Below, piece after piece: positions 4,451 to 30,601 of a stretch of DNA of 38,938 bases (positions within the stretch are counted from its first letter, which is position 1; each line of letters begins with the position of its first letter). The stretch lies in the sequence record ON470620.1, one strand, 5' to 3'. Under the pieces are notes generated by a model, which made no database searches, was not told the origin of the DNA, and saw only the letters and a program-made list of their open reading frames with translations. The stretch comes from Escherichia phage vB_EcoM-813R9. The position numbers were made by a program, and so were the translations under genes.

Positions 4451-5203
4451 TTAATCTGTGCTTTGTTCTGCCAGTCTGGCGATTTGTTTTGCCATTCCGC
4501 GAAAAATAAACAGATGCGCGGGGATCATCAATAACCAGTAAAACAGCCCCGGCATACCGTGCGGATGCCAGAAAGCGCGGACATCGATAGTACGATAGTC
4601 GCCTTTATCTTCCAGGCTAAAACACAGTCGTCCCAGCCCCGGCGCTTTCATGCCAAATAACAACGTAAGTTGTTTTTCCGGTTCAACGACAATCACTTTC
4701 CAGCTATCCACCGCATCGCCAGTCTGTAAATATTCGCGCTCCGGGCGGCCTTTCGCCAGCTTATGACCGATCGCGCGGTCCATCAACGCCCGTGTCTGCC
4801 ACAAAATATTGCCAAAGAAATAACGCTCTTTACCGCCGATTTGGTTCACTACCTGCCATAAAGCAGCAAGGCTGGCGGACGTTTTAACGGTAAACCCCGC
4901 CTGTTTGGCAAAATAACCGTACTCCGGTCGCCAGCGGGCAAAGGCCTGAGCGTCGTAGCCCCAGTCGCTGGAGTTGACCAGTTTTTCCTCCTCTTTCAAC
5001 GTGCTACGTACCGCGTCATCGAAAGCGATCAGCCGTTGTGGGATGAGTGCACGTAGCGCGGTATCATCCGCCAGCAGATCGTGTTTCAGCCCCTGAATCA
5101 ACGCCCTGGCGGTGGTGGGCGGTACGGAAGTAATCACATTGAGAAACCACACCGAAATCCAGCGGGTGGGGAGGGGGATGGGGATCAACCAGCGGCGCTT
5201 ACC
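4451..5203 (-). CDS. ybjT: YbjT C-terminal portion; 5' part lost in the assembly gap
   Basis: Reading frame continues upstream of ORF 4451..5188 (..[15 protein letters not shown]..) until it hits the N-run. Confidence 0.75.
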
Positions 5204-7764: not shown

Positions 7765-8110
7765 TCTCTGCTCCTGTTGATACGGAAAGGGACACAGGCA
7801 CACCGTTATTCCGCCGCCCGGTCAGCTCCACCACCATTGAACCGTCAAAATTGCTGTTAATAGTGATGGAATCCAGCGTCAGCCGTGGCTCCCAGCGACT
7901 CAGTGCCACATACACAGCCGACATGACCTGCAGGCGTAACGCCGGATTTTGTGGCTGGTCTATCAGTGCCGACAGCAGGGAACCATATTCCCGACGGGCA
8001 ATGCGGCTACCCTGCGGCGTCAGCAAAATGTCCCGCACCGACTGGCGCAGATGGTCAATATCAGTAATGGCTTTACCGCTGGTATTGTTCATCCCGCTAT
8101 AAAGCGTCAT
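7751..8110 (-). CDS. W: Baseplate wedge protein W (gp25-like)
   Basis: 119-aa ORF with P2 gpW-like motifs (GSRIARREYGSLL, IDQPQNPAL). Confidence 0.85.
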   Translation of the reverse strand: MTLYSGMNNTSGKAITDIDHLRQSVRDILLTPQGSRIARREYGSLLSALIDQPQNPALRLQVMSAVYVALSRWEPRLTLDSITINSNFDGSMVVELTGRRNNGVPVSLSVSTGAENGSD

Positions 8111-8685
8111 ACCGGGCCTCCGGTTGTGTCGCCGCCTTTCAGGACGCCAGTATGCTGATGTGCATCAACCACAATTCCGTTAGAACTCATTGCACCGCCG
8201 CCCTGGGTAACACCACCATTGATCACTACTTCGCTGTTAATGCGTGTGCGGTCAGCCTCCAGTACAAACTCACTGGTTTTCAGGGTGATGTTGTCGGCAG
8301 CTTCAATGACCATGGATTTGATTCCCCTGACATACCAGCGCCCGGTAGCGGGTTCGTATTCAAACCAGCCACCGTCAGGATGTTCTGTCACACAGGCGTC
8401 CACCGACGCCGACGGTGGTGCGAACTGATTCGAATATACAGCGGGCAGCGCAAAGGCGGTTTCCAGATTGCCGCCCAGACTCAGCAGCACCACCTGCTCA
8501 CCTTCCGATGGTCGCCACCATGTGCGGGCATTACCCGCGCGCAGCGTCAGCCAGTTAATCCAGTTGGTTTCAAGGTCGCCCGTTTTCACCCGACAAAGCC
8601 AGTGTTCCCGGTCCACTTCGGTGACTACACCAGTGCGGATCAGGTTGGTGATAAGGCGCATGATTTCGGTTAATTGTGCGTTCAT
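8107..8685 (-). CDS. V: Baseplate spike/hub protein V
   Basis: 192-aa ORF with P2 gpV-like motifs (WLTLRAGNARTWWRPSEGEQV, HQHTG...GGDTTGGP). Confidence 0.85.
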   Translation of the reverse strand: MNAQLTEIMRLITNLIRTGVVTEVDREHWLCRVKTGDLETNWINWLTLRAGNARTWWRPSEGEQVVLLSLGGNLETAFALPAVYSNQFAPPSASVDACVTEHPDGGWFEYEPATGRWYVRGIKSMVIEAADNITLKTSEFVLEADRTRINSEVVINGGVTQGGGAMSSNGIVVDAHQHTGVLKGGDTTGGPV

Positions 8686-8731
8686 AATTTAATCATGCCG
8701 AGATAAGATTGATAAAAAAACTCTTTAGTTT

Positions 8732-8749
8732 TGTGCCAGTTATGATACA
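8732..8749. promoter_or_regulatory. Candidate Ogr/Delta-type late-activator site (TGT-N12-ACA) of the V operon promoter
   Basis: tgtgccagttatgataca lies about 55 bp upstream of the V start codon; P2-type late promoters carry this dyad. Confidence 0.45.
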
Positions 8750-8785
8750 AAGTGCATTTACTCATGGACTAAATAAAGGATTCCT

Positions 8786-10045
8786 ATGTTTAGATTATCT
8801 AGTGTCAAGATTGAAGGTTTTTGGGGAAGACTAAATGCATCATGTTCATTTAATGAAGATGTAAATATTATTATTGGTCGAAATGGGACCGGTAAAACAA
8901 CCTTTATGAATATTCTTCACTCAGTTCTGGCATTAGAACTCGAATCACTAAATGAGAATAGTTTTGATAATGTAACAATAAAAATAAAAGAAGGAAGCAA
9001 AACTAAAACAATAAAAGTTGTGAGTAAATTTGACATAACTAAAGCTTTGCCTACGTTTGAATATACAATTTCTAGAAAGAAATATATTATCAGATCCTTT
9101 GAAGATCGTAGACTACCTATATATATGAGGAGAAAATATCAGGAAGACGTTGAAAAACTTAAGTTAGAGTTAGATAAATTAGTTGCTTTATCTTCTCTAT
9201 CAGTTTACCGACTTAGAAGCGGTGAAGATTTTGAAATCAGAGACAAATATGGCTCAAAATTAATCAACCCTGTTGATTACCGATTAGAACAATTATTGCA
9301 GAACCTAACAAAATATCAACTTTATTTATCACAAAGAGCTCGTGATGTTTCTGCAATATTACAGAAAGAGGTTCTTGCTTCTATTCTTTATAGTAAAGAA
9401 GATGGTATCGATGACACATTTAACTTTTCTTTTGATAAAGAAAAAGAACGTAGAAATTTAATAGCTGCATATTCTCAGCTTGGAGCTTTTGATAGTGATG
9501 TCAGAAAGAAGATTAACTTTCACGTTGAATCTATTGCCAAAACATTTGAAGAATTACGACTTGCAGAAAAAAATAACAGAAATATTTTAAATGTAGATTA
9601 CAGATCATTTGAGGCATTACGAAAGACGCAAAGAATTATAAAGATGTCTTTAAAATCCGAGGAGAAAATAAAAAACATATTTCTTCCTATAAATCTATTT
9701 TTAGAAACATTACATGAGTTCATAACCGATAAAAAATTTAATTTTATCTCCGGTGAGCTAGTAATAGAAAACGAGCATGGGCCGATTAGCCATAGTAATT
9801 TATCGTCTGGTGAAAAACAGCTATTAATTCTTTTTATTGAAACTTTGCTACAGCAAAACAAACCTTTCATCTATCTTACTGATGAACCAGAATTATCGCT
9901 ACATATTGCATGGCAACGAAAAATAATACCTGCAATCAAACAACTTAATCCTAATGCGCAAATTATCGCCGCTACGCATTCACCAGAAGTGGCTTCTAAA
10001 TATCGAAATGCAATCTTTGATATGGAGAAATTGGTTCATGGATGA
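8786..10045 (+). CDS. ariA: ABC/SMC-like ATPase (AAA15-type); candidate AriA of a PARIS-like defence module
   Basis: 419-aa ORF in AT-rich DNA; Walker A GRNGTGKTT, ABC signature LSSGEKQ, Walker B FIYLTDEPELSLH, H-loop ATHSPE; RBS aaagga. Confidence 0.6.
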   Translation: MFRLSSVKIEGFWGRLNASCSFNEDVNIIIGRNGTGKTTFMNILHSVLALELESLNENSFDNVTIKIKEGSKTKTIKVVSKFDITKALPTFEYTISRKKYIIRSFEDRRLPIYMRRKYQEDVEKLKLELDKLVALSSLSVYRLRSGEDFEIRDKYGSKLINPVDYRLEQLLQNLTKYQLYLSQRARDVSAILQKEVLASILYSKEDGIDDTFNFSFDKEKERRNLIAAYSQLGAFDSDVRKKINFHVESIAKTFEELRLAEKNNRNILNVDYRSFEALRKTQRIIKMSLKSEEKIKNIFLPINLFLETLHEFITDKKFNFISGELVIENEHGPISHSNLSSGEKQLLILFIETLLQQNKPFIYLTDEPELSLHIAWQRKIIPAIKQLNPNAQIIAATHSPEVASKYRNAIFDMEKLVHG

Positions 10046-10889
10046 TTTCCATTATTCTGCCGAAGCAGAAAATGTAATGAATTTATTTTACCAAGCTGAA
10101 GCCATGGTTTATGTTGAAGGCCCAGATGATATTTGCTTTTGGGAAATCATCTTTAATAAAGCTAGTTCATTAAAGGTTGAAATCAAAGATGTTGGCGGCT
10201 GTGAAGAATTAAAAAAATATATTGATAGAGTTACTGATGAAGATCTTCAAATTATAATTGCATGTGATGCAGACTTCACTACATTTGAAAATGAGGAAAA
10301 CGCTGATAGTCGCATTGTAAAAACTTATGGGCACTCCATCGAAAACACGTTTATTGACAAAACAGGCATATATAAGGCAATAAAAACTCTAGGAAAATTA
10401 CCTCAAAAGATAATGAACGATGTCAACGTCGATTCTTGGACAGAAGACTTTTATACCAAAATGGAACCCCTAATAAAACTTGATATATACAATCATATTT
10501 ATAGAAAAGGCATTTCAGTTATTGGTGACAGTGCAGATCGTTTCATGAAATCTAGAAAATCAAATGAAATTTGCGAGCAAAAAATCACGAGTTACAAAAA
10601 CACCATCATTGAAAAATTAGGTGTGGAACCAGATAACATCGATTCATCTTTCAAATCAAAATCGATAGAATACAGAAAGTGGCTTAGAGGTCATTTTCTT
10701 TTTTCTGCAGTACATAGGTACATTAGCACAACTGCAGAAAAAAATGGAAAAAAAGTATCCTTATCATATGAATCATTATATTCCAATTTAATGAATACAT
10801 TTGAATCCAATTTTACCAATACTCATATTGAGTTTAATCATTACCACGAAAAAATTAAAGCCATAAATATGCCACACGAAATGAAATAA
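10038..10889 (+). CDS. ariB: Toprim/DUF4435-like protein; candidate AriB effector of a PARIS-like module
   Basis: Start ATG overlaps the ariA stop (ATGGATGA); N-terminal VYVEGPDD with Glu27 and a downstream IIACDAD (DxD) motif as in Toprim/OLD-family nucleases; AT-rich. Confidence 0.55.
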   Translation: MDDFHYSAEAENVMNLFYQAEAMVYVEGPDDICFWEIIFNKASSLKVEIKDVGGCEELKKYIDRVTDEDLQIIIACDADFTTFENEENADSRIVKTYGHSIENTFIDKTGIYKAIKTLGKLPQKIMNDVNVDSWTEDFYTKMEPLIKLDIYNHIYRKGISVIGDSADRFMKSRKSNEICEQKITSYKNTIIEKLGVEPDNIDSSFKSKSIEYRKWLRGHFLFSAVHRYISTTAEKNGKKVSLSYESLYSNLMNTFESNFTNTHIEFNHYHEKIKAINMPHEMK

Positions 10890-10914
10890 GAAAAAATACA
10901 GATGTATTTTTATA

Positions 10915-11361
10915 TTATGTAGATAACCATTCAAATAGGGTATCCTTGATTTGATAATATTCTTTATCGTGGATACCCAATAGCTTACGCTCTGCGTAAC
11001 GGACCTCAGGTCCTTTGCGACTGACGCGATCACGCAGGCCGTAGTGATGAACGCGGGCAATGCGCTGCACCTTGCCTTCAAACTGCACGCTGGCAGAATC
11101 GGCGCTGGCGGCAGTTTTCAGGTATTTTGTGGTGCGCAGCTTCGCAAACATCTGACGTTTAATGCGGCCTTTTTTACTGCGTGCTGTTACCCGTCGCGGT
11201 TCATAGCTGCTGCCGTCAGGGTTGCGCTGCATCCTGATATTCTGCTGCTGTGTCCGGCGAAGTTCCTGCGCCAGTTGGCGCATCATACGGCTTCTTGCGG
11301 CTGGCTCCAGATTCGCCAGCAAGGCACTCAGCCAGTCGTCCACCTTCTGCAATTCAGCCAC
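10915..11361 (-). CDS. S: Tail completion protein S
   Basis: 148-aa ORF at the P2 gene S position after R; apparent GTG start; last ~25 codons lie in AT-rich DNA. Confidence 0.7.
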   Translation of the reverse strand: MAELQKVDDWLSALLANLEPAARSRMMRQLAQELRRTQQQNIRMQRNPDGSSYEPRRVTARSKKGRIKRQMFAKLRTTKYLKTAASADSASVQFEGKVQRIARVHHYGLRDRVSRKGPEVRYAERKLLGIHDKEYYQIKDTLFEWLST

Positions 11362-16861: not shown

Positions 16862-18628
16862 ATGAACACCACACTGACACCCGCAGATCTCGATCCCCGT
16901 CGGCAGGCCATGCTGCTGTACTTTCAGGGATACCGCGTAGCCCGCATTGCTGAAATGCTGGGCGAGAAAGTTGCAACCGTTCACAGCTGGAAAAAACGCG
17001 ACAAGTGGGGTGACTATGGGCCGCTGGATCAGATGCAGCTCACCACCGCCGCACGCTACTGCCAGCTCATCATGAAGGAGCACAAAGAAGGGAAAGATTT
17101 CAAAGAGATTGACCTGCTGGCGCGCCAGTCGGAGCGCCACGCGCGGATCGGCAAGTTTAACAATGGCGGCAACGAAGCTGACTTAAACCCTAACGTCGCC
17201 AACCGCAACAAAGGCCCACGCCGTCAGCCTGAAAAGAATGTTTTCACCGATGAACAGATTGAGAAGCTGGAAGAAATTTTCCATTCCTCCATGTTCAACT
17301 ACCAGCGCCACTGGTGGGAAGCCGGAAAAACCAACCGCATCCGCAACCTGCTGAAGTCACGCCAGATCGGCGCGACCTTCTATTTTGCCCGTGAAGCCCT
17401 GATTGACGCCCTGCTTACCGGACGTAACCAGATTTTCCTTTCTGCCAGTAAGGCACAGGCCCACGTCTTTAAGCAGTACATCATCGACTTCGCCAAAGAA
17501 GTGGAGGTGGAGCTGAAAGGCGATCCGATGGTGCTTCCCAACGGGGCCACGCTTTACTTCCTCGGCACCAATGCCCGCACGGCCCAGAGTTACCACGGCA
17601 ACCTGTATCTGGATGAATATTTCTGGATACCGAAATTCCAGGAGCTGCGCAAAGTGGCTTCCGGTATGGCTATTCACAAAAAATGGCGACAAACCTATTT
17701 TTCCACGCCATCCAGCCTGACACACAGTGCTTATCCGTTCTGGTCCGGTGCGCTGTTCAACCGTGGGCGCAACAAAGCCGATAAGGTGGACATCGACCTG
17801 TCCCACAGCAATCTGGCCCCCGGCCTGCTGTGCGCAGACGGGCAATACCGCCAGATAGTCACCGTGGAAGATGCGGTGCGCGGCGGCTGTAACCTGTTCG
17901 ACCTTGACCAGTTGCGCATGGAGTACAGCCCGGACGAATACCAGAACCTGCTGATGTGCGAGTTTGTGGACGATCTCGCGTCCGTGTTCCCGCTCAGCGA
18001 GCTGCAGGCGTGCATGGTAGACAGCTGGGAAGTCTGGACTGACTTTCATGCACTGGCCCTGCGCCCGTTTGGCTGGCGCGAAGTATGGATCGGTTATGAC
18101 CCGGCGAAAGGTACGCAGAATGGCGACAGCGCCGGATGCGTGGTGGTGGCACCGCCAGCCGTGCCGGGCGGCAAGTTCCGCATTCTTGAGCGTCACCAGT
18201 GGCGCGGAATGGACTTTCGCGCCCAGGCTGACGCCATCAAAAAACTGACCGAACAGTACAACGTGACCTACATCGGCATCGACTCGACAGGTGTCGGCCA
18301 CGGGGTTTACGAGAACGTGAAAGCGTTTTTTCCAGCCGTCCGGGAGTTTGTCTACAACCCCAACGTTAAAAACGCCCTGGTACTCAAGGCCTACGACATT
18401 ATCAGTCACCGTCGTCTGGAGTTTGACGCCGGACACACCGACATAGCGCAGTCATTTATGGCAATCCGTCGCGCCACCACCGCCAGCGGCAACCGCCCAA
18501 CCTATGAAGCCAGCCGCAGCGAAGAAGCCAGCCATGCCGATCTGGCCTGGGCAACAATGCACGCACTGTTTAACGAACCGCTGCAGGGCGAATCCGCCAA
18601 TACCAGCAATATTGTGGAGATTTTTTGA
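16862..18628 (+). CDS. P: Terminase large (ATPase) subunit P
   Basis: 588-aa ORF P2 gpP-like; stop overlaps Q start (TGATG). Confidence 0.9.
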   Translation: MNTTLTPADLDPRRQAMLLYFQGYRVARIAEMLGEKVATVHSWKKRDKWGDYGPLDQMQLTTAARYCQLIMKEHKEGKDFKEIDLLARQSERHARIGKFNNGGNEADLNPNVANRNKGPRRQPEKNVFTDEQIEKLEEIFHSSMFNYQRHWWEAGKTNRIRNLLKSRQIGATFYFAREALIDALLTGRNQIFLSASKAQAHVFKQYIIDFAKEVEVELKGDPMVLPNGATLYFLGTNARTAQSYHGNLYLDEYFWIPKFQELRKVASGMAIHKKWRQTYFSTPSSLTHSAYPFWSGALFNRGRNKADKVDIDLSHSNLAPGLLCADGQYRQIVTVEDAVRGGCNLFDLDQLRMEYSPDEYQNLLMCEFVDDLASVFPLSELQACMVDSWEVWTDFHALALRPFGWREVWIGYDPAKGTQNGDSAGCVVVAPPAVPGGKFRILERHQWRGMDFRAQADAIKKLTEQYNVTYIGIDSTGVGHGVYENVKAFFPAVREFVYNPNVKNALVLKAYDIISHRRLEFDAGHTDIAQSFMAIRRATTASGNRPTYEASRSEEASHADLAWATMHALFNEPLQGESANTSNIVEIF

Positions 18629-19662
18629 TGGGAAAGAGTAAGAAGAACCGCGCTGCGGCGACGAAACAGATCCAGCTTAAAAGTCAAACTACAGCCGAAG
18701 CATTCAGCTTCGGCGATCCCGTTCCTGTTCTGGACCGCCGAGAACTGCTGGATTATGTGGAATGCGTACAGATGGACCGTTGGTATGAGCCGCCCGTCAG
18801 CTTTGACGGACTGGCGCGCACCTTCCGCGCTGCCGTGCATCACAGTTCCCCGATTGCAGTAAAGTGCAACATTCTGACCAGTACCTATATCCCTCACCCG
18901 CTGCTCAGCCAGCAGGCTTTTTCACGTTTTGTGCAGGACTACCTGGTATTTGGTAACGCCTACCTGGAGAAACGCACGAACCGCTTCGGTGAAGTTATCG
19001 CCCTTGAGCCTGCCCTGGCAAAATATACCCGACGCGGGTTAGACCTGGATACCTACTGGTTTGTGCAATACGGTATGACAACCCAGCCATATCAGTTCAC
19101 GAAAGGCAGCATTTTTCATCTGATGGAACCAGATATTAATCAGGAGATCTACGGCCTGCCCGGCTATCTTTCTGCCATCCCATCCGCTTTGCTCAACGAG
19201 TCCGCCACGCTGTTCCGCCGCAAATATTACATTAACGGTAGTCATGCAGGCTTCATCATGTACATGACCGATGCCGCGCAGAACCAGGAGGATGTGAACA
19301 ACCTCCGCAATGCGATGAAAAGCGCCAAAGGGCCGGGCAACTTCCGCAACTTGTTTATGTACTCACCCAACGGAAAGAAAGACGGGATTCAGATCATCCC
19401 GCTGTCAGAGGTGGCGGCAAAAGATGAGTTTCTTAACATCAAGAACGTGAGCCGGGATGACATGATGGCAGCGCACCGTGTACCGCCGCAGATGATGGGG
19501 ATTATGCCTAGTAATGTTGGCGGGTTTGGGGATGTTGAAAAGGCTAGTAAGGTTTTTGTCAGGAATGAGTTAATTCCGCTACAACACAGAATATCTGAAA
19601 TTAACTCATGGATTGGACTTAATGAAGAACTGGTTAAATTTACCTCATATGAATTAGATTAG
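18628..19662 (+). CDS. Q: Portal protein Q
   Basis: P2 gpQ-like (LDRRELLDYVEC, NESATLFRRKYY, GPGNFRNLF); ORF-track start 18625 is TTG, ATG at 18628; last ~40 codons AT-rich. Confidence 0.9.
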   Translation: MGKSKKNRAAATKQIQLKSQTTAEAFSFGDPVPVLDRRELLDYVECVQMDRWYEPPVSFDGLARTFRAAVHHSSPIAVKCNILTSTYIPHPLLSQQAFSRFVQDYLVFGNAYLEKRTNRFGEVIALEPALAKYTRRGLDLDTYWFVQYGMTTQPYQFTKGSIFHLMEPDINQEIYGLPGYLSAIPSALLNESATLFRRKYYINGSHAGFIMYMTDAAQNQEDVNNLRNAMKSAKGPGNFRNLFMYSPNGKKDGIQIIPLSEVAAKDEFLNIKNVSRDDMMAAHRVPPQMMGIMPSNVGGFGDVEKASKVFVRNELIPLQHRISEINSWIGLNEELVKFTSYELD

Positions 19663-19713
19663 GCATATAGAAATGCACCTAACATCGAAAGTGAGATTAG
19701 GTGCAAATAATAA

Positions 19714-20865
19714 TCAGCTTATTTGACCTAATAATTCTTCCGCATATTTTTTATCACTATCCATCCGTTGCTGAACAGCATCCCTAAGATGCTCTTTCAA
19801 CTTATCAGGATAATTTTTACATGCATCAATCAATTTTGTTCGTAAAAGCTTAGCACCATTTACAATGGTGGCATAAGCTAAAGCATCAGCTAACTCCTTA
19901 ACTTTCACATCATCAGTAATGATAGAAGGGATTGAAAAAACGTAATATTTCGCAACATAATTTTGCGTATACCAACTATCATATAACAATCCAATTAAAG
20001 CATCACCAAGATCACCTCTTCTTTTAAATTTGCTACCAAATGTATTACCCCATGTTCCTATAGCTCCTTTGGTCGCATCAGAATAGAAATCCAAATATCC
20101 TTTTTTGCACTCTTCGATGATTATATTTTCCATTCTAATTAAAACATCATCAGGAAGATTTCTCCATGCGCTCGGCTTAATTATTCTAAATACATTAGCA
20201 AACTCAACATTATTGCTAGCCTTGCGTAACTCATCACCTAGCAACCGCATTGCGGCTTTTTCTTCCTCTCCTGAAAAGCGTTGGTTTATTGCTTTGAATA
20301 TAGAATCAATTTCCTTGGTTGGCCTTTCATTAAAGCGAGAAATTAAACTTTGGAAAAAATCTAGTAGTTTTTTTTCTGGAATTTGTGATATTAAAGCTTC
20401 TGCATAATCAGAATTATTTACAAAGTGAACCTCATAAATTCTTTCAAGAATTGCTGTGTAATCGAACTCAGCAACATCTCTTTTTAAATACTTAATAAAA
20501 GTATCCAACATGATCAATATTCTCATGCAGGAATCTTCTGTATCAGGGAAATTGTCATGTGTCCTTGGATTTCTTATACACTGATAGTAGCCTCTTAATA
20601 GTGCTTCAAATCCGCGCTGTTCGTCCTGCTCTGATACAGATTGAAGACTATTAATTTGGATTCTAGGTGATTGTCCACCCAAAACAGTACCAACAAGCTG
20701 AGCCCCATCCCCTTCACATTGCCCTTTTTCACGCAGCAAAGTTGTTAGATATTTGGTTCCTGCAAGTATTGCATCCGAAAATTGGTTGTTTTCCAGCCTA
20801 TTACCAATCGCTTCAACTAATTCCGCATCGAAATTATTTGTATTAAAGTTATTTTTTACAAACAT
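19714..20865 (-). CDS. Accessory protein with N-terminal HEPN-like domain (TIGR02391/Hypoth_Ymh-type, Rx4H) and large uncharacterised C-terminal domain; candidate abortive-infection/defence effector
   Basis: 383 aa from the ATG after an aggggag RBS (ORF-track start is GTG at 20868); motif IRNPRTHD = R98-x4-H103 preceded by ..QRGFEALLRG..; AT-rich; occupies the Q-to-A accessory slot (old/tin position in P2). Confidence 0.6.
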   Translation of the reverse strand: MFVKNNFNTNNFDAELVEAIGNRLENNQFSDAILAGTKYLTTLLREKGQCEGDGAQLVGTVLGGQSPRIQINSLQSVSEQDEQRGFEALLRGYYQCIRNPRTHDNFPDTEDSCMRILIMLDTFIKYLKRDVAEFDYTAILERIYEVHFVNNSDYAEALISQIPEKKLLDFFQSLISRFNERPTKEIDSIFKAINQRFSGEEEKAAMRLLGDELRKASNNVEFANVFRIIKPSAWRNLPDDVLIRMENIIIEECKKGYLDFYSDATKGAIGTWGNTFGSKFKRRGDLGDALIGLLYDSWYTQNYVAKYYVFSIPSIITDDVKVKELADALAYATIVNGAKLLRTKLIDACKNYPDKLKEHLRDAVQQRMDSDKKYAEELLGQIS

Positions 20866-20950
20866 CACACTCCCCTTTTTTTGAAAGGGTATTGTATTGA
20901 ACCTTGTTAAGATTTCTCAGATAAGTATCACACTATCTCAAGTTGCGCGC

Positions 20951-20970
20951 GCTCGTATCCCCGCCACGCC
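20951..20970. other. Candidate cos (cohesive end) core
   Basis: Reverse complement reads ggcgtggcggggatacgagc, resembling the GC-rich 19-nt cohesive ends of P2/186-type phages (recalled, not aligned). Confidence 0.35.
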
Positions 20971-21019
20971 TGCCCGCTTTATGTAGTGGTTTTCATGCAC
21001 CTGCATGATCTACGCAAAA

Positions 21020-21760: not shown

Positions 21761-24172
21761 TTAATACAGGTTCCGCCACTGATCATCTTCTTGCAAACGC
21801 TGGTTCCGATAGAAGATACGCAGGCCTGCTCCTGACGGAATACTGCCTCCGCGAAGGAGTAAATCGACCTCTTTCTCGCTGCCATCAAATCCTCTGGACT
21901 TCAGCTCATACACGAGCTGCAGTCGCTGATGGTCTGTAATTCGCTGTTTGTAGTCTTTACGCCGTTTCGGTTTCACCAGGCGTAACCTTGCAGCCAGTTC
22001 CCGGCGCTCTTTTTTGTTCATACTGTGCAGGTAATCGTGCAACTCCTTGTCATCCATGCTGGTAATGTCCGTTCTGGGGTCCCCATCAGCTGATTTATCT
22101 TTCTCCTGTTGGTTCAAATTTTCAGCAAGGGGACAGTTATTGCCACGAGTCCAAGGGGCGCAAGCGCCCTGGGCTGCCGCCTCCTGAACGTCAACGGCTT
22201 TACGAACCATTTTCCACTTCACTGCATGAGTGCAGATCTTGCCCTCTGCAATGGGTGACCAGATGCCATAAATACGAATGCCGTGATCGCCATAGGCGGT
22301 CGGCTCTTCGTTGATTTCATAAGCGGTTCTGATGAGGTGATATTTACGGGGAACCAGTACGCCGCCCTGCTTCATGATGTAGGTGGCAAAACAACCAGCA
22401 TCAGCAGCAGCCAGAATGGCATCAAGACGCGGGTTATCCAGTACCGGCGCACCTGCTTTTTTGTCACCCTGTTGCCTTGCCGCCTGACCAGCCAGCAAGC
22501 GAAGTTCACGGTAAGCCTGACGCCCCGGAATACCAAAGAAGCGGAATTGCTGAACACGATGCAGAGACGCCCAGGCATTCACGTATTCAGCGTTATCACG
22601 CAGAGATTTACCCGTTTCCTTGCTGATCTCGCCAGCCAGACCACGACCGTCAATGTTCTTACTGATATATTTCGCGATGTAGCTTGTCGGCGTTCCTTTG
22701 CGCGGGTTAATCAACTCAGACTTAAAGCGCGGCCCAGTGTTATTGCCCAGCTCCTCGCGGTCTTCACGGATGGCAAACTTACGCAGTAATGCAGTGATGG
22801 CACGGCGGTCTTTTTTGCGCATGAAACACAACAGGTGCCAGTGAACTGTGCCATCATGATGCGGCTCAGCCACCCGCACGCCATACCAGCGCAACCCGGC
22901 TTTGTGCATCGCCTTACGAAATGCAGCAAACATGCCGACCAGATAATCGCTGCTTTGTCTTACCGTCGCGTTTGTCCAGGTCGGGTTTGGTCTGCCGTTA
23001 TTTAGCGTGGAATGGAAACGCGACGGACAGGTGATAGTGTAGAAAACGGCGCAGTCACCGCGCATTTCCGCGATAAGCTCCAGACCTTTAACACAGGCCA
23101 TCATCTCATTGCGGCGATGCGCAGGGTTGCTGCTGCTGGCGTTTACCACATCCTCCATGTCCAGCGTGTCGCCGTCTTCGTTCACCAGTTCATGAGAACG
23201 GAAAAACTCCAGCGACTTACGGCGCTGCTCACGTTTATGCATCACGGCTTCATAGCTGACATAAGGAGATGCTTTTTTGCTGACCAGGCAAACAGCGCGC
23301 AACTGCTCTTCCCGCCATTCGCAACGCATCTTCCATAATTTCCGATACCACCAGTCGGCGCACAACATACGCGCCAGCGAACCCGGAATGAGTTCATAGG
23401 GCACGGGTTTACGGCGGTTTCTTTTCCGACGGAGTTGCTCAAACGCAGGTGGGATGACATCCAGACGCAGGGTTTCCGCTGCCACCTTTTCCCATGTCTT
23501 GCGGATTTCTTCTGGCTTAACGTCATCGGTGGCATACAAATCACCACAAGCTGCATCAAGGCACATACTCATATGCGCAGCTACCAGGGTGGACAGGCGT
23601 TTCACCTGATCCTGACTCATTTCAGGCAGGATCAGCAGGCCGTCCAGCCCTTCATGGCTTGCCATAAAGCGAAAAGATGCAGATAGCTGACTGTCGCGTA
23701 CATGCTCCAGTCGTTCCAGACATGGCTTAATCGTCTCACGTAAATAGCGGGAATAAGCCTTTGGCCTGCCCAGGCTGCTGAAGTATTCAATACGTTGCAT
23801 CAGCGGCTTGCTGATATTGGAAGGCTGGGCGTTGACGTCCGCCAGAATGACCATGTCTGAATTAAAACGCTGCTGCTCATGCGCCAGCTTTGCCCGGCTA
23901 ATGAGCTTATCCTGCTCCATTTCGCGCTGGACAGGATCACGTGATTCATTAAAGAAATAACGCTCCCAGACCTGATCACTCAGTGCCTCGCGGCGCAACT
24001 GTTCCTGCTCGTTATCGGCAGCGTACAGAGTGATCAGGTTTGAAAGCGTAGAAACCGGCGCAACTTCCGCCGGGTCCAGATAAGGGTTAATGGCCTTTTT
24101 CGGGCTGTTCCATGAGAATGCTGCGGCAGCCTCGTTAAAGCCGCAGCACTTGTTCATATCGGCATGACTCAT
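21761..24172 (-). CDS. A: Rolling-circle replication initiation protein A
   Basis: 803-aa ORF with HUH motif (TVHWHLLCF) and catalytic tyrosine region ([14 protein letters not shown]); P2/186 gene A position. Confidence 0.9.
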
Positions 24173-27172: not shown

Positions 27173-27769
27173 ATGTCAACATCAAAGTACCCAAGTGAGA
27201 TCAAAATAAATCCCAATAAAGGTGGTAAGGCTGCGATTGAGCGATTAGTCGAAGCCTATGGCTTTACGACACGACAGGCTTTAGCTGATCACTTGGAAGT
27301 ATCAAAAAGCACACTAGCGAACAGGTATTTGCGGGATACATTTCCTGCTGACTGGATAATCCAATGTGCTCTTGAAACAGGAACCTCCCTCAAATGGTTA
27401 ACTACCGGACAAGGCCTTAAGCAAAGCTCGCTGACAGCAGCTACAGAAGAGCTTGTTAAGTTTCGCCTTGCCGCAGGCAAAATGATTGAAGACGGTTCAT
27501 ATGTCTTCGATTCATCATTTCTTCCTGCAAACCTTTCATCACCAATTGTTGTTCAGGATGGACTCGTCACATACATTTGTGATCAAAAATTTTCTGAAGT
27601 ACTTGATGGAAACTGGTTAATCAATATCGACGGAACCTATTCCATTCGAAAAATCACAAGGCTTCCTAAAGGAATGATTAAAATTACAACAGCAGAGAAT
27701 AGCTTTGAATGTGCATTTTCTGATATTGAAGTGGTTGCTTGTATAAGAAGTACAATAGTCTCGAATTAA
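27173..27769 (+). CDS. cI: CI immunity repressor (phage 186 type)
   Basis: 198-aa ORF with shared motifs ..AYGF.., ..LANRY.., ..CALETG..L.WL.TG.G; transcribed toward int. Confidence 0.8.
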   Translation: MSTSKYPSEIKINPNKGGKAAIERLVEAYGFTTRQALADHLEVSKSTLANRYLRDTFPADWIIQCALETGTSLKWLTTGQGLKQSSLTAATEELVKFRLAAGKMIEDGSYVFDSSFLPANLSSPIVVQDGLVTYICDQKFSEVLDGNWLINIDGTYSIRKITRLPKGMIKITTAENSFECAFSDIEVVACIRSTIVSN

Positions 27770-27789
27770 TATAGTAAAAGGATTTTAAA

Positions 27790-29466
27790 ATGAATTCATT
27801 TGCCATCGTTATACTCTTATTAGCATTTCTCGCCCCTGTTCTAGCTGTAATATTATTTAAACAAAGTAAAAAACACAAAGCGGCTATAGATAACCTGACA
27901 GCTAACAACATAGCCCTTTCTAACCAACTGATTGAAAATCAAGAAAAACTAGCACAGACCGTACGAGAATTATCAGAGCTTGAAGGGCGAGCAGCACCAT
28001 TGTGGCAATACGAAGAATTGCACAGCGCAGTAATGGATGCAGAGAATAAGATAAAAAATGCGGACTCAATAGCCAAGCAAAAAATAGATGAAGCCCAAAT
28101 TAAGGCGGCTAAAACAGTAAACGAAGCAAATTATCAAGCTCAGATGACAATAAGCAACGCTAATAGCGAAGCTATAGCAATCACCAAAGACGCTCGCGAT
28201 GCACGCCTGAAAGCCAAAGAACGTCTTGATAATGCTAATAATAAAGCAAATGAGCTAATCTCAAATGCTAATGACAATGCAGTAAAAATTATTTCTGATG
28301 CAGAAGAAAGAGCAAAGGAGATTGCTGGTTCAGCATATGAAGCTAAAGAGTTTGCAGAAAAATATGAAGCAGTTGCAAAATCAATGAAAAATAAAATTGA
28401 AGGTTATGGTGATGAATGGATCATCCCTAACCGTAGTGTACTTGATGAGCTGGCAGAAAATTATGAATTTACAGATGCAGGCAAGGAATTACAAAAAGCC
28501 AGAGAGTTAACCAAATCATTAATAAAAACTAATAAAGCTGCTTCGTGTGATTATGTTGAGCAAAACAGGCGTAATACTGCCATAAACTTTGTTTTGGATG
28601 CCTTCAATGGAAGAGTTGACAGTATTTTATCAAAAGTCAAACACAACAATTTTGGAAAACTTTCCCAAGAAATAAAAGATGCATTTCAACTAGTAAATTA
28701 CAATGGCTCTGCCTTTAGGTCCGCAAAAATAAGTGACATCTATCTTCAGGCAAGACTCAACGAGCTAAAATGGGGTGTAGCAGTTAATGAAATTATGCTC
28801 GAAGAAAAAGAAGAGCAAAGAAGGATTAAAGAACAGCTTCGTGAAGAGGAAAGAGCTCGTAGAGAATATGAAAAAGCGATAAAAGAAGCTGAAAAAGAAG
28901 AAAAAGCTATTCAGCAAGCTATAAATAAAGCAACGAAAGAACTTATGCTTGCAAATGAAGAACAACGCTTAGCTTTAGAGCAAAAAATAGCTGAACTACA
29001 GTTAAAATATGAAGAAGCTGAAGCTAAAAATCAACGAGCTATTTCTATGGCTCAACAAACCAGATCAGGCCACGTCTATATCATTAGTAATATTGGTTCA
29101 TTTGGCGAAGATGTATATAAAATTGGAATGACACGCCGCCTTGAACCACTTGATCGTGTTCGTGAACTCGGAGATGCTAGTGTTCCTTTTTCGTTCGATG
29201 TTCATGCGATGATTTATAGTGATGATGCACCATCATTAGAAAACCATCTGCATAAAGTTTTCAACGAAAAGCAGGTCAATAAAATTAACTCACGAAAAGA
29301 GTTTTTTAACGTAAATTTAAAAGAAATCAAATCAGTTATTGAAGACATGAACATCAACGCCCACTGGACAATGTTTGCAGAGGCGAAAGAATATAGAGAG
29401 TCTCTATCTATTGAGCAGGAGCGCAAAGCAGCCACTTCCGCCAACGATGAACTACATGTTGCTTAG
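27790..29466 (+). CDS. Membrane-anchored coiled-coil protein with C-terminal GIY-YIG-like (T5orf172/MUG113-type) domain; candidate defence/superinfection-exclusion cargo
   Basis: 558 aa; N-terminal TM helix FAIVILLLAFLAPVLAVILF; long Ala/Lys/Glu-rich coiled-coil; C-terminal GHVYIISN..VYKIGMTRR..PFSF..ENHLH..REFF; AT-rich; RBS aaagga right after the cI stop. Confidence 0.65.
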   Translation: MNSFAIVILLLAFLAPVLAVILFKQSKKHKAAIDNLTANNIALSNQLIENQEKLAQTVRELSELEGRAAPLWQYEELHSAVMDAENKIKNADSIAKQKIDEAQIKAAKTVNEANYQAQMTISNANSEAIAITKDARDARLKAKERLDNANNKANELISNANDNAVKIISDAEERAKEIAGSAYEAKEFAEKYEAVAKSMKNKIEGYGDEWIIPNRSVLDELAENYEFTDAGKELQKARELTKSLIKTNKAASCDYVEQNRRNTAINFVLDAFNGRVDSILSKVKHNNFGKLSQEIKDAFQLVNYNGSAFRSAKISDIYLQARLNELKWGVAVNEIMLEEKEEQRRIKEQLREEERARREYEKAIKEAEKEEKAIQQAINKATKELMLANEEQRLALEQKIAELQLKYEEAEAKNQRAISMAQQTRSGHVYIISNIGSFGEDVYKIGMTRRLEPLDRVRELGDASVPFSFDVHAMIYSDDAPSLENHLHKVFNEKQVNKINSRKEFFNVNLKEIKSVIEDMNINAHWTMFAEAKEYRESLSIEQERKAATSANDELHVA

Positions 29467-29524
29467 CAATGTATGTTTCATAGTAATCACACATTGATTA
29501 CTGGTTACATATACAGTTAAATTT

Positions 29525-29548: not shown

Positions 29549-30601
29549 ATGGCAGTACGAAAACTAACCACAGGGAAATGGCTTTGCGAATGTTACCCCG
29601 CCGGACGAAGTGGGCGTCGTGTGCGTAAACAATTCGCTACCAAAGGCGAAGCACTGGCTTTTGAGCGCCACACGATGGAAGAAACCGAAGCAAAGCCCTG
29701 GCTGGGTGAATCAGTGGATCGTCGAACACTGAAAGACGTGGTTGAGCTATGGTTCAAACTACATGGTAAATCTCTGACAGCTGGGCAGCATGTCTATGAC
29801 AAATTGCTGTTGATGGTTGACGCTCTGGGCAATCCTCTTGCAACCGATCTCACCTCTAAAATGTTTGCCCACTATCGAGATAAACGCCTGACAGGCGAGA
29901 TCTACTTCAGCGAGAAATGGAAGAAAGGAGCAAGCCCGGTCACCATTAACCTGGAGCAAAGCTATCTAAGTAGTGTTTTTAGCGAACTATCCCGTCTGGG
30001 CGAATGGTCGTATCCGAACCCACTGGAGAACATGCGAAAATTCACCATCGCAGAAAAAGAGATGGCATGGCTTACCCATGAGCAGATTGTTGAATTGCTG
30101 GCTGATTGCAAACGTCAGGACCCAATTCTGGCACTGGTAGTTAAGATATGCTTAAGCACAGGCGCACGCTGGCGTGAAGCCGTAAATCTTACCCGCTCAC
30201 AGGTGACCAAATACCGAATTACCTTTGTCAGAACGAAGGGGAAGAAAAACAGAAGCATCCCTATCAGTAAAGAGCTTTACGAAGAGATCATGGCGCTTGA
30301 TGGGTTCAATTTCTTCACAGACTGCTATTTTCAATTTTTATCCGTGATGGAAAAAACGTCTATCGTGCTCCCTCGCGGTCAACTCACACACGTTCTGCGC
30401 CATACGTTTGCGGCGCACTTCATGATGTCGGGTGGAAACATTCTGGCCTTACAAAAAATTCTCGGACACCACGATATAAAAATGACTATGCGTTACGCAC
30501 ATCTGGCACCGGATCATCTAGAAACGGCGCTCCGTTTCAATCCTCTGGCAACGCTGCCAAGTGGCGACAAAGTGGCGGCAGCGGTTGGCATTACCCCGTA
30601 A
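29549..30601 (+). CDS. int: Tyrosine integrase (P2/186 family)
   Basis: 350 aa; catalytic-domain motifs ..STGARWREA.., HVLRHTFAAHF, MRYAHLAPDHL; adjacent to the chromosome junction. Confidence 0.9.
   Translation: MAVRKLTTGKWLCECYPAGRSGRRVRKQFATKGEALAFERHTMEETEAKPWLGESVDRRTLKDVVELWFKLHGKSLTAGQHVYDKLLLMVDALGNPLATDLTSKMFAHYRDKRLTGEIYFSEKWKKGASPVTINLEQSYLSSVFSELSRLGEWSYPNPLENMRKFTIAEKEMAWLTHEQIVELLADCKRQDPILALVVKICLSTGARWREAVNLTRSQVTKYRITFVRTKGKKNRSIPISKELYEEIMALDGFNFFTDCYFQFLSVMEKTSIVLPRGQLTHVLRHTFAAHFMMSGGNILALQKILGHHDIKMTMRYAHLAPDHLETALRFNPLATLPSGDKVAAAVGITP

Follow-up and report, generated by a model that had tools for sequence, protein, structure and literature searches.

The window analyzed here, the whole stretch of 38,938 nucleotides from Escherichia phage vB_EcoM-813R9 (ON470620.1), contains a P2-like prophage whose late genes lie on the minus strand. 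The late region has an accessory site between its homologs of gpS (PF05069) and gpV (PF04717), confirmed by the cargo found there: an S-V interval of 2229 bp, with 27-35% G+C compared with 52-60% on either side, encodes two plus-strand genes. In relatives, the neighbors of the S/V site are the R, lysis, W and J genes. The features of the locus are as follows.

8107..8685, minus strand: V (baseplate spike), conserved flank; open reading frame with Pfam matches to Phage_base_V and Apex
8686..8785, minus strand: putative cassette-private late promoter P_V, an unalignable upstream stretch sharing its space with the upstream region of the divergent ariA
8732..8749: TGT-N12-ACA dyad (TGTGCCAGTTATGATACA) at -64..-47 relative to the V ATG; presumed Ogr-type activator site
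8786..10045, plus strand: ariA, PARIS ABC-type ATPase, 419 aa; PADLOC AriA PDLC04164, 5.7e-40
10038..10889, plus strand: ariB, DUF4435/TOPRIM effector, 283 aa; Pfam DUF4435, 1.4e-25; PADLOC AriB, 2.8e-24
10892..10911: weak AU hairpin between the convergent ariB and S stops; -4.1 to -5.1 kcal/mol, z -1.5 to -2.4
10915..11361, minus strand: S (tail completion; Phage_tail_S), 148-codon open reading frame with a GTG start overlapping R
10915..10987, minus strand: cassette-borne 3' end of S, codons 126-148 (KLLGIHDKEYYQIKDTLFEWLST) plus stop; 31% G+C
10988..11361, minus strand: S body, codons 1-125, conserved flank; 58% G+C, phage-typical composition

The island can be identified from its sequence as a PARIS system (AriA plus AriB) occupying the S/V site, because both proteins match their profiles and both carry readable motifs. 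AriA, which also matches the Pfam models AAA_21, AAA_15 and SMC_N, shows in translation the Walker A motif GRNGTGKT, the signature LSSGEKQ, the Walker B motif IYLTDEPE and the H-loop ATHS; AriB shows VEG and CDAD motifs. The ariB start is an ATG at 10038 that overlaps the ariA stop (ATGGATGA), within a longest open reading frame beginning at 9954, and AriB is 283 residues long in public gene calls for the same cassette. The genes for the ABC ATPase and the DUF4435/TOPRIM protein are thus adjacent, overlapping and co-oriented, with 31% G+C, and no unusual feature of the system was seen. The first description of PARIS came from hotspots of P4-like satellites, together with an abortive-infection phenotype triggered by anti-restriction proteins such as Ocr (Rousset et al. 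2022, PMC9122126); the copy in the window sits instead in the S/V site of a P2-like prophage.

The hairpin at 10892-10911, with an AU-only stem (AAAAATACA-GA-TGTATTTTT) and a U-rich run after it on the S strand, may serve as a bidirectional terminator; a terminator scan that requires G+C missed it. Consensus promoter and terminator scans of the island returned sites no more common than those in shuffled sequence, and did not locate an ariA promoter. Downstream of the ariB stop, within the cassette-borne S tail, is a perfect 8-bp inverted repeat, GGGTATCC / GGATACCC, at 10938-10945 and 10971-10978. Taken as 16-nt arms it has 81% complementarity, and it could be a terminator stem for the ariAB transcript or a product of chance.

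The prophage has two other AT-rich islands. One, at 19500-21000 with 33-41% G+C, sits in the classic old/tin hotspot position, flanked by the portal gene Q (18625..19662) and by gpA (21761..24172); the other, at 27500-29500 with 35-37% G+C, has the CI repressor (27173..27769) on one side and the integrase (29549..30601) on the other. Their principal open reading frames are these.

19714..20868, minus strand: Hypoth_Ymh / HEPN-like open reading frame, 384 aa; weak PADLOC match to PD-Lambda-3_B
27790..29466: open reading frame with DUF4041 and T5orf172, 558 aa; PADLOC PD-Lambda-1, 3e-120

With defense matches in all three AT-rich islands, the prophage therefore carries three separate defense cargos.

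A break in composition and identity inside S

S matches Pfam model PF05069 with E=4.9e-41, its residues 3-146 aligning to profile positions 2-147, and by this alignment it is a full-length match to the family, C-terminal segment included. Base composition differs sharply between its two parts. G+C is 217/374 (58%) over nt 1-374 and 22/70 (31%) over the last 70 coding nt (Fisher p=4.5e-5), and GC3 is 0.63 in the body compared with 0.33 in the tail. The G+C profile steps from 0.55-0.58 to 0.27-0.33 at about 10990, then stays low through the island to 8686. The original prediction held that the last ~25 codons of S are AT-rich and continuous with the ATPase/Toprim island while the rest of the gene has phage-typical composition; both parts are borne out, the count being 23 codons. 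Within the span it named, 10890-10995, the part from 10890 to 10914 is intergenic and lies outside the S coding sequence.

In a megablast search against phage records, a 3-kb query shrinks to 840 bp in close relatives. Two relatives that lack the island, the E. coli prophage-plasmid p13P477T-2 and Klebsiella phage 4LV2017, have an S-V spacer of 68 bp, and up to codon 125 their S proteins differ from that of the window by no more than one residue. Beyond this point they have a GC-rich end, ..RRLLGVNDDVEAMTRDMILQWLAG, reading RLLGVNDDVEAMTRD[MI]ILQWLAG where the window has KLLGIHDKEYYQIKDTLFEWLST. A likelihood change point against these relatives falls at S nt 374, with identity of 94.4% before and 42.5% after, and the first differing base is window position 10987, the third base of codon 125, which places the break at 10988|10987. 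The 3' end of S had been predicted to mark one island boundary, recognizable as a collapse of identity to related phages, and that is where the collapse is found; the C-terminus of the relatives without the island, rather than being identical to that of the window, differs from it and is GC-rich.

A stretch of 73 nt is short, and an AT-rich gene end of this size could in principle be a local fluctuation of composition, or a sequencing or assembly artifact, with no junction behind it. We assign this reading a negligible probability. The difference in G+C within S is significant, the collapse of identity coincides with the step in composition, and the same sequence is found in 18 complete E. coli genomes and in IMG/VR contigs, as well as in one metagenome contig and in Logan/ENA/NCBI contigs. 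An exact-match search of metagenome contigs with the tail DNA returned the same prophage only.

The window tail equals the canonical tail, VNDDVEAMTRDMILQWLAG, in length and scores 27 against it in an in-register BLOSUM62 comparison, a value reached by 0 of 20000 shuffles; among tails from cassettes, 19/20 resemble the canonical tail at p<0.05. Synonymous AT-rich codons are used in the window tail even at the conserved positions L127, L128 and L146. By these comparisons, the window tail is a diverged but true S C-terminus written in AT-rich codons, not a peptide encoded by the cargo. A different origin would have the cargo inserted illegitimately into the 3' end of S, with the new C-terminus an unrelated peptide that the protein tolerates. 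The tail does have the same composition as the cargo, a few cassette tails barely resemble the canonical one (L031, p=0.10; L033, p=0.03), and in three loci a cargo open reading frame overlaps the S tail on the opposite strand. Such an origin is nevertheless very unlikely given the length and register of the window tail, the significant similarity of nearly all cassette tails, the semi-conserved D139, L141, W144 and L145 kept across tails, and an alignment to the Pfam model that continues through residue 146.

An AlphaFold model of S has low overall confidence (pLDDT 65, pTM 0.30) and includes a C-terminal helix at residues 131-146 with local pLDDT of 85-88; the tail is accordingly predicted to be the C-terminal helix of the protein. 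Searches of the PDB with the S sequence and with a 60-sequence profile found no related chain, the only matches being chance ones to ribosomal protein eL38 (E about 0.1). Homologous exchange alone does not explain why the tail shares the composition of the cargo. Two origins of its AT-richness are conceivable: import from an AT-richer P2-like lineage, or drift toward A/T in DNA that homogenizing recombination does not reach.

S endings and V promoters that accompany the cargo

Among complete E. coli genomes, 18 have the identical island, and about 1000 have S and V separated by other content, including SIR2, DUF6216, DUF2971, hypothetical proteins and another PARIS. In six E. coli loci and phage Cartapus, the S body is near-identical and each locus has its own AT-rich tail following a conserved ..RYAER-x-LLG; in the first loci compared, 10/10 had S tails distinct between cargo clusters. 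We extended the comparison to 75 loci from one genome per species and 80 IMG/VR loci, with S and V both present in 142, a sample to be read against some 1000 E. coli genomes that have a site of this kind. The S body is 94-100% identical to the S of relatives with other cargo or with none. The canonical tail belonged to empty 68-bp sites in 56/56 loci, and no tail was common to any two of the 28 cargo clusters represented by 47 cargo-bearing loci (S at least 70% identical). Between S body and tail, G+C falls by a median of 0.19 in cargo loci compared with 0.025 in empty ones (Mann-Whitney p=6e-10). The window tail, with the allele pattern IHDKEYYQIKDTL[FL]EWLS., belongs to a family seen only adjoining this PARIS cassette in the loci and public contigs compared.

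A set of 120 database S proteins with 80% or more identity to that of the window contains 86 different tails, and entropy per column rises from 0.05-0.7 bits ahead of residue 128 to about 2.1 bits beyond it. The depth of the junction varies between cassettes, from S nt 353 to 409, with clustering at nt 372-375 (eight different cassettes) and others at 387-389, 398-401 and 409; some cargos in the window's lineage break only in the last one to three S codons (L017, L035, L075). In the DUF6216 cargo family, a cargo open reading frame overlaps the S tail antisense by 59 nt (L006, 1632-1690) or 83 nt (L021), so that the same bases encode the ends of both proteins.

The other edge of the block coincides with the start of V. 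From its first base onward, V is again highly identical to its counterparts in relatives, with the first 60 nt near-identical in all compared loci, whereas 8686..8785 cannot be aligned to the spacer of empty sites except at the activator box. The TGT-N12-ACA dyad is kept at -63..-66 in 32 of 33 mutually independent V-upstream alleles, and identity among these alleles outside the dyad is only 31%. In the window, a -10-like ATTAAAT adjoins the V ATG. The RefSeq annotation of P2 centers the activator binding site about 55 nt upstream of the V transcription start and, for P2 itself only, places the start of the V operon transcript at the first base of the V CDS; the P2 V mRNA is therefore leaderless. 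The V-upstream alleles of the window's lineage are consistent with leaderless translation of V throughout, as annotated for P2. No allele has a Shine-Dalgarno sequence (window 8686-8700; L001-L010), and a -10-like hexamer lies 5-11 nt before the V ATG.

Similarity resumes exactly at the V ATG presumably because everything upstream is promoter, in which only position-specific elements are constrained. Since this boundary of the block lies exactly at the V start codon, the block carries its own P_V, and this private promoter is presumably active. Where the site is empty, only 4 nt separate the S stop from the P_V dyad, so there is hardly any neutral DNA to receive an insertion of cargo. Each cargo at the site thus appears to come with its own S ending and its own promoter for the next gene.

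At least four backbones carry this PARIS block together with its S tail. Tail and cargo of the window differ from those of IMG/VR L087 and L088/89 at 43 and 41 of 2302 positions (1.8-1.9%), compared with 76 and 45 of 953 positions (4.7-8%) over S 1-374 plus V, and the block is significantly less diverged than its flanks in both comparisons (Fisher p=2e-15 and 6e-6, respectively). The tail itself differs from those of L087-L089 at 1/73 positions. A fourth backbone is represented by six public contigs encoding the tail variant ..DTLLEWLSE, with divergence of 2.3% in the cargo, 7% in the S body, 14-16% in V and 19% in R/lysis; its tail differs at 4/73 positions (5.5%), too few sites to separate the cargo rate (2.3%) from the S-body rate (7%). 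Overall, on the three further backbones the block is 1.8-2.3% diverged compared with 4-19% for the flanks. The tract of low divergence relative to other carriers reaches to about S nt 355 and to V +57 to +81, beyond the block on both sides, so 10987/10988 is an old haplotype edge and not necessarily the latest crossover. The haplotype block that it bounds is portable and is shared by many cassettes.

Two other PARIS variants occupy the same site. A diverged cassette in E. coli S56 (L010), with 67-72% nucleotide identity, has its own AT-rich tail; although the cargo aligns at that level, the tails of the window and L010 are too short and too diverged for DNA alignment. In L010 (NZ_CP010242, 4193-6239), PARIS is annotated as four CDS fragments, two AAA and two DUF4435, and is apparently frameshifted, and the S gene is intact, with 152 aa and its own variant tail. 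The third variant, in IMG/VR contig L173, has 74% (AriA) and 54% (AriB) amino-acid identity and yet another AT-rich tail. In L173 (IMGVR_UViG_2881135396_000001, 4491-5000), S appears to be broken by stops or frameshifts upstream of residue 87, which may indicate a decaying prophage or an assembly error. Judged by the divergence among these cassettes, PARIS appears to be a long-standing resident of the S/V site.

Probable exchange of the block between P2-like genomes

The probable explanation is a portable hotspot cassette, swapped by homologous recombination in its flanks, with the AT-rich end of S as its right-hand edge. In the window's lineage, with Elveevirus / Fels-2-like S genes, there is almost no free DNA between S, the last gene of the O operon, and V, the first gene of the V operon, and for this reason the variable block extends beyond intergenic DNA. 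Here it spans S codon 126 to V position -1 and has four components: its own allele of the S C-terminal helix, the hairpin, the cargo (ariA-ariB, running antisense to the late genes) and its own P_V, in which nothing is conserved but the activator box, the spacing of that box and a -10-like element. Such blocks would be swapped between co-resident or co-infecting P2-like genomes, with crossovers falling in the conserved S body and in V; tail and promoter would travel with the cargo, since their shortness and their divergence between blocks keep recombination from separating them from it. A comparable pattern is known for gnd, beside the E. coli O-antigen cluster, a core gene that is polymorphic where the adjoining cassette-like locus is exchanged by flanking recombination; the hitch-hiking segment in S differs in being only about 70 nt long, saturated with changes and shifted in base composition.

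The conserved flanks, the lower divergence of the block relative to its flanks and the variable depth of the junction fit flanking exchange, and homologous recombination, inferred from this pattern, is the most likely route. The original prediction that the island was acquired by recombination inside the 3' end of S is supported to that extent, as is its proposal that the island brought a replacement C-terminus, since island and tail move together from one phage backbone to another. S function presumably tolerates replacement of its tail.

Elements such as e14 and phage 21 in icd, and many islands in tRNA genes, offer a precedent of another kind, in which incoming DNA supplies a divergent but functional 3' end to its target gene by means of an integrase and att repeats. 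A site-specific element with its attachment site in the 3' end of S, bearing a replacement end, would produce the same outcome here, leaving the target gene intact, and the recurrence of the junction at S nt 372-375 in eight different cassettes speaks for such a mechanism. The block in the window, unlike those elements, contains ariA and ariB only, with no integrase, transposase or other recombinase, and has neither att repeats nor any direct or inverted repeats at its two ends, which argues against both transposition and site-specific insertion. In addition, no remnant of a displaced S end is found at the V side, the junctions vary between cassettes from nt 353 to 409, and the boundary at V is a functional landmark (V +1) instead of a repeat. 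Site-specific insertion is, on balance, highly improbable.

Flanking exchange treats the tail as a passenger, but the linkage of tail to cargo might instead be adaptive, with the S tail hypervariable under diversifying or cargo-specific selection, as through escape from tail-targeting defenses, assembly incompatibility of co-resident P2-like phages or self-immunity to the cargo. The extreme diversity of tails on a near-invariant S body and the strictness of the linkage would both be expected under such selection. The three diverged PARIS cassettes (window, L010, L173), however, have three dissimilar tails, so there is no cargo-specific tail motif. Synonymous sites in the tail are also shifted toward A/T, which points to mutation and linkage and away from selection on amino acids, the promoter adjoining the cargo is equally diverged, and in the P2 genus cargo changes without a change of tail. 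We regard selected coupling as unlikely. Quite unlikely, too, is the idea that private tails are functionally matched rather than passive, each cassette bringing its own tail-completion interface; examples would be tail incompatibility of co-resident P2-like phages or of P4-hijacked assemblies, escape from defenses aimed at tail completion, or protection of the phage's own assembly from its cargo. If this were true, the hotspot would exchange units of defense plus private structural interface.

The orf30 locus of P2 resembles the locus in the window in its S/V site and in AT-rich cargo (35% G+C in P2) that runs antisense to the late genes, with orf30 itself non-essential. After this cargo, the P2 annotation places the P_V activator site and, at base 1 of V, the start of transcription. 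It differs in carrying the single gene orf30 rather than two-gene PARIS, and in that S is kept to its last two to three codons, compared with 10-24 codons included in the block in the window's lineage. P2 (with orf30) and Wphi (empty, with a 66-bp spacer) have identical S genes but for two bases in the last three codons; despite flanks of about 96% identity, no alignment of their P_V regions is possible. Because a full-length S query ranks identical tails first and so gives a biased sample, IMG/VR loci of the P2 genus were drawn with S residues 1-128. In this sample the P2 tail is kept at six cargo-bearing spacer lengths, and only the last one to eight S residues track cargo in the genus, with S ending ..HLDR at empty sites and ..HLER with orf30, and also as ..HLNR and ..EGIISNHLE. 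The penultimate S codon (L167, which is P2, 860-868; IMG/VR L255-L324) encodes Asp at empty sites, Glu with orf30 and Asn with cargo of 1257-1263 bp. Since that codon tracks the cargo, the junction in the P2 genus lies inside the last two to three S codons. Deep replacement of the tail is thus typical of the window's lineage and not of the site in general, and a junction at the extreme 3' end of S is common to both.

Published hotspots of P2-like and P4-like elements similarly hold diverse defense cargo, including PARIS, swapped rapidly between core genes (PMC9122126; PMC13586616; bioRxiv 10.1101/2024.10.15.618418). PARIS and the gpA/gpQ hotspot were described by Rousset et al. 2022 (PMC9122126), sparser hotspots "within the tail genes" are mentioned by Moura de Sousa et al. 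2026 (PMC13586616), and Egorov et al. 2024 treat old/tin, Z/fun and a third hotspot (10.1101/2024.10.15.618418). Flanking homologous recombination is discussed as a hotspot mechanism in general terms (PMC9122126; PMC13586616). Those hotspots occupy space between core genes, mainly at gpA/gpQ, at Z/fun and on the integrase side, whereas here the boundary falls inside a core gene and the block supplies replacement parts for the phage's own late functions. By text search, gpS, gpV and orf30 are absent from PMC9122126 and PMC13586616, and gpS and gpV from 10.1101/2024.10.15.618418; none of the three contains an analysis of S/V boundaries or of boundaries inside S. A paper on a tail-assembly blocker (PMC10884400), considered as a precedent, concerns another locus. 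Literature on orf30, leaderless V and S/V boundaries, a search whose scope excluded the older P2 papers of Nilsson and Haggard-Ljungquist, contained no description of replacement at the S 3' end. The cargo, the site and hotspot exchange are thus already known; an exchange unit that reaches into an essential gene, with a private helix and the promoter of a leaderless operon, appears to be undescribed.

These results give base-pair boundaries for one defense hotspot of P2-like phages. Hotspot finders that rely on core-gene coordinates will misplace the ends of its cargo, and will take S for a uniformly conserved gene, although few segments of the phage vary more than its end. Tail alleles can be used as short tags for cassette identity and for transfer between backbones, and for the engineering of P2-like phages or tailocin-like particles the comparison indicates which part of S is replaceable and which promoter elements should be kept. 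The shift in composition within a coding segment that is still homologous offers a small natural test of import against drift under suppressed recombination. The unit of exchange, finally, reaches beyond intergenic DNA, taking in the last 23 codons of an essential tail gene together with the entire promoter of an operon that is leaderless in P2.
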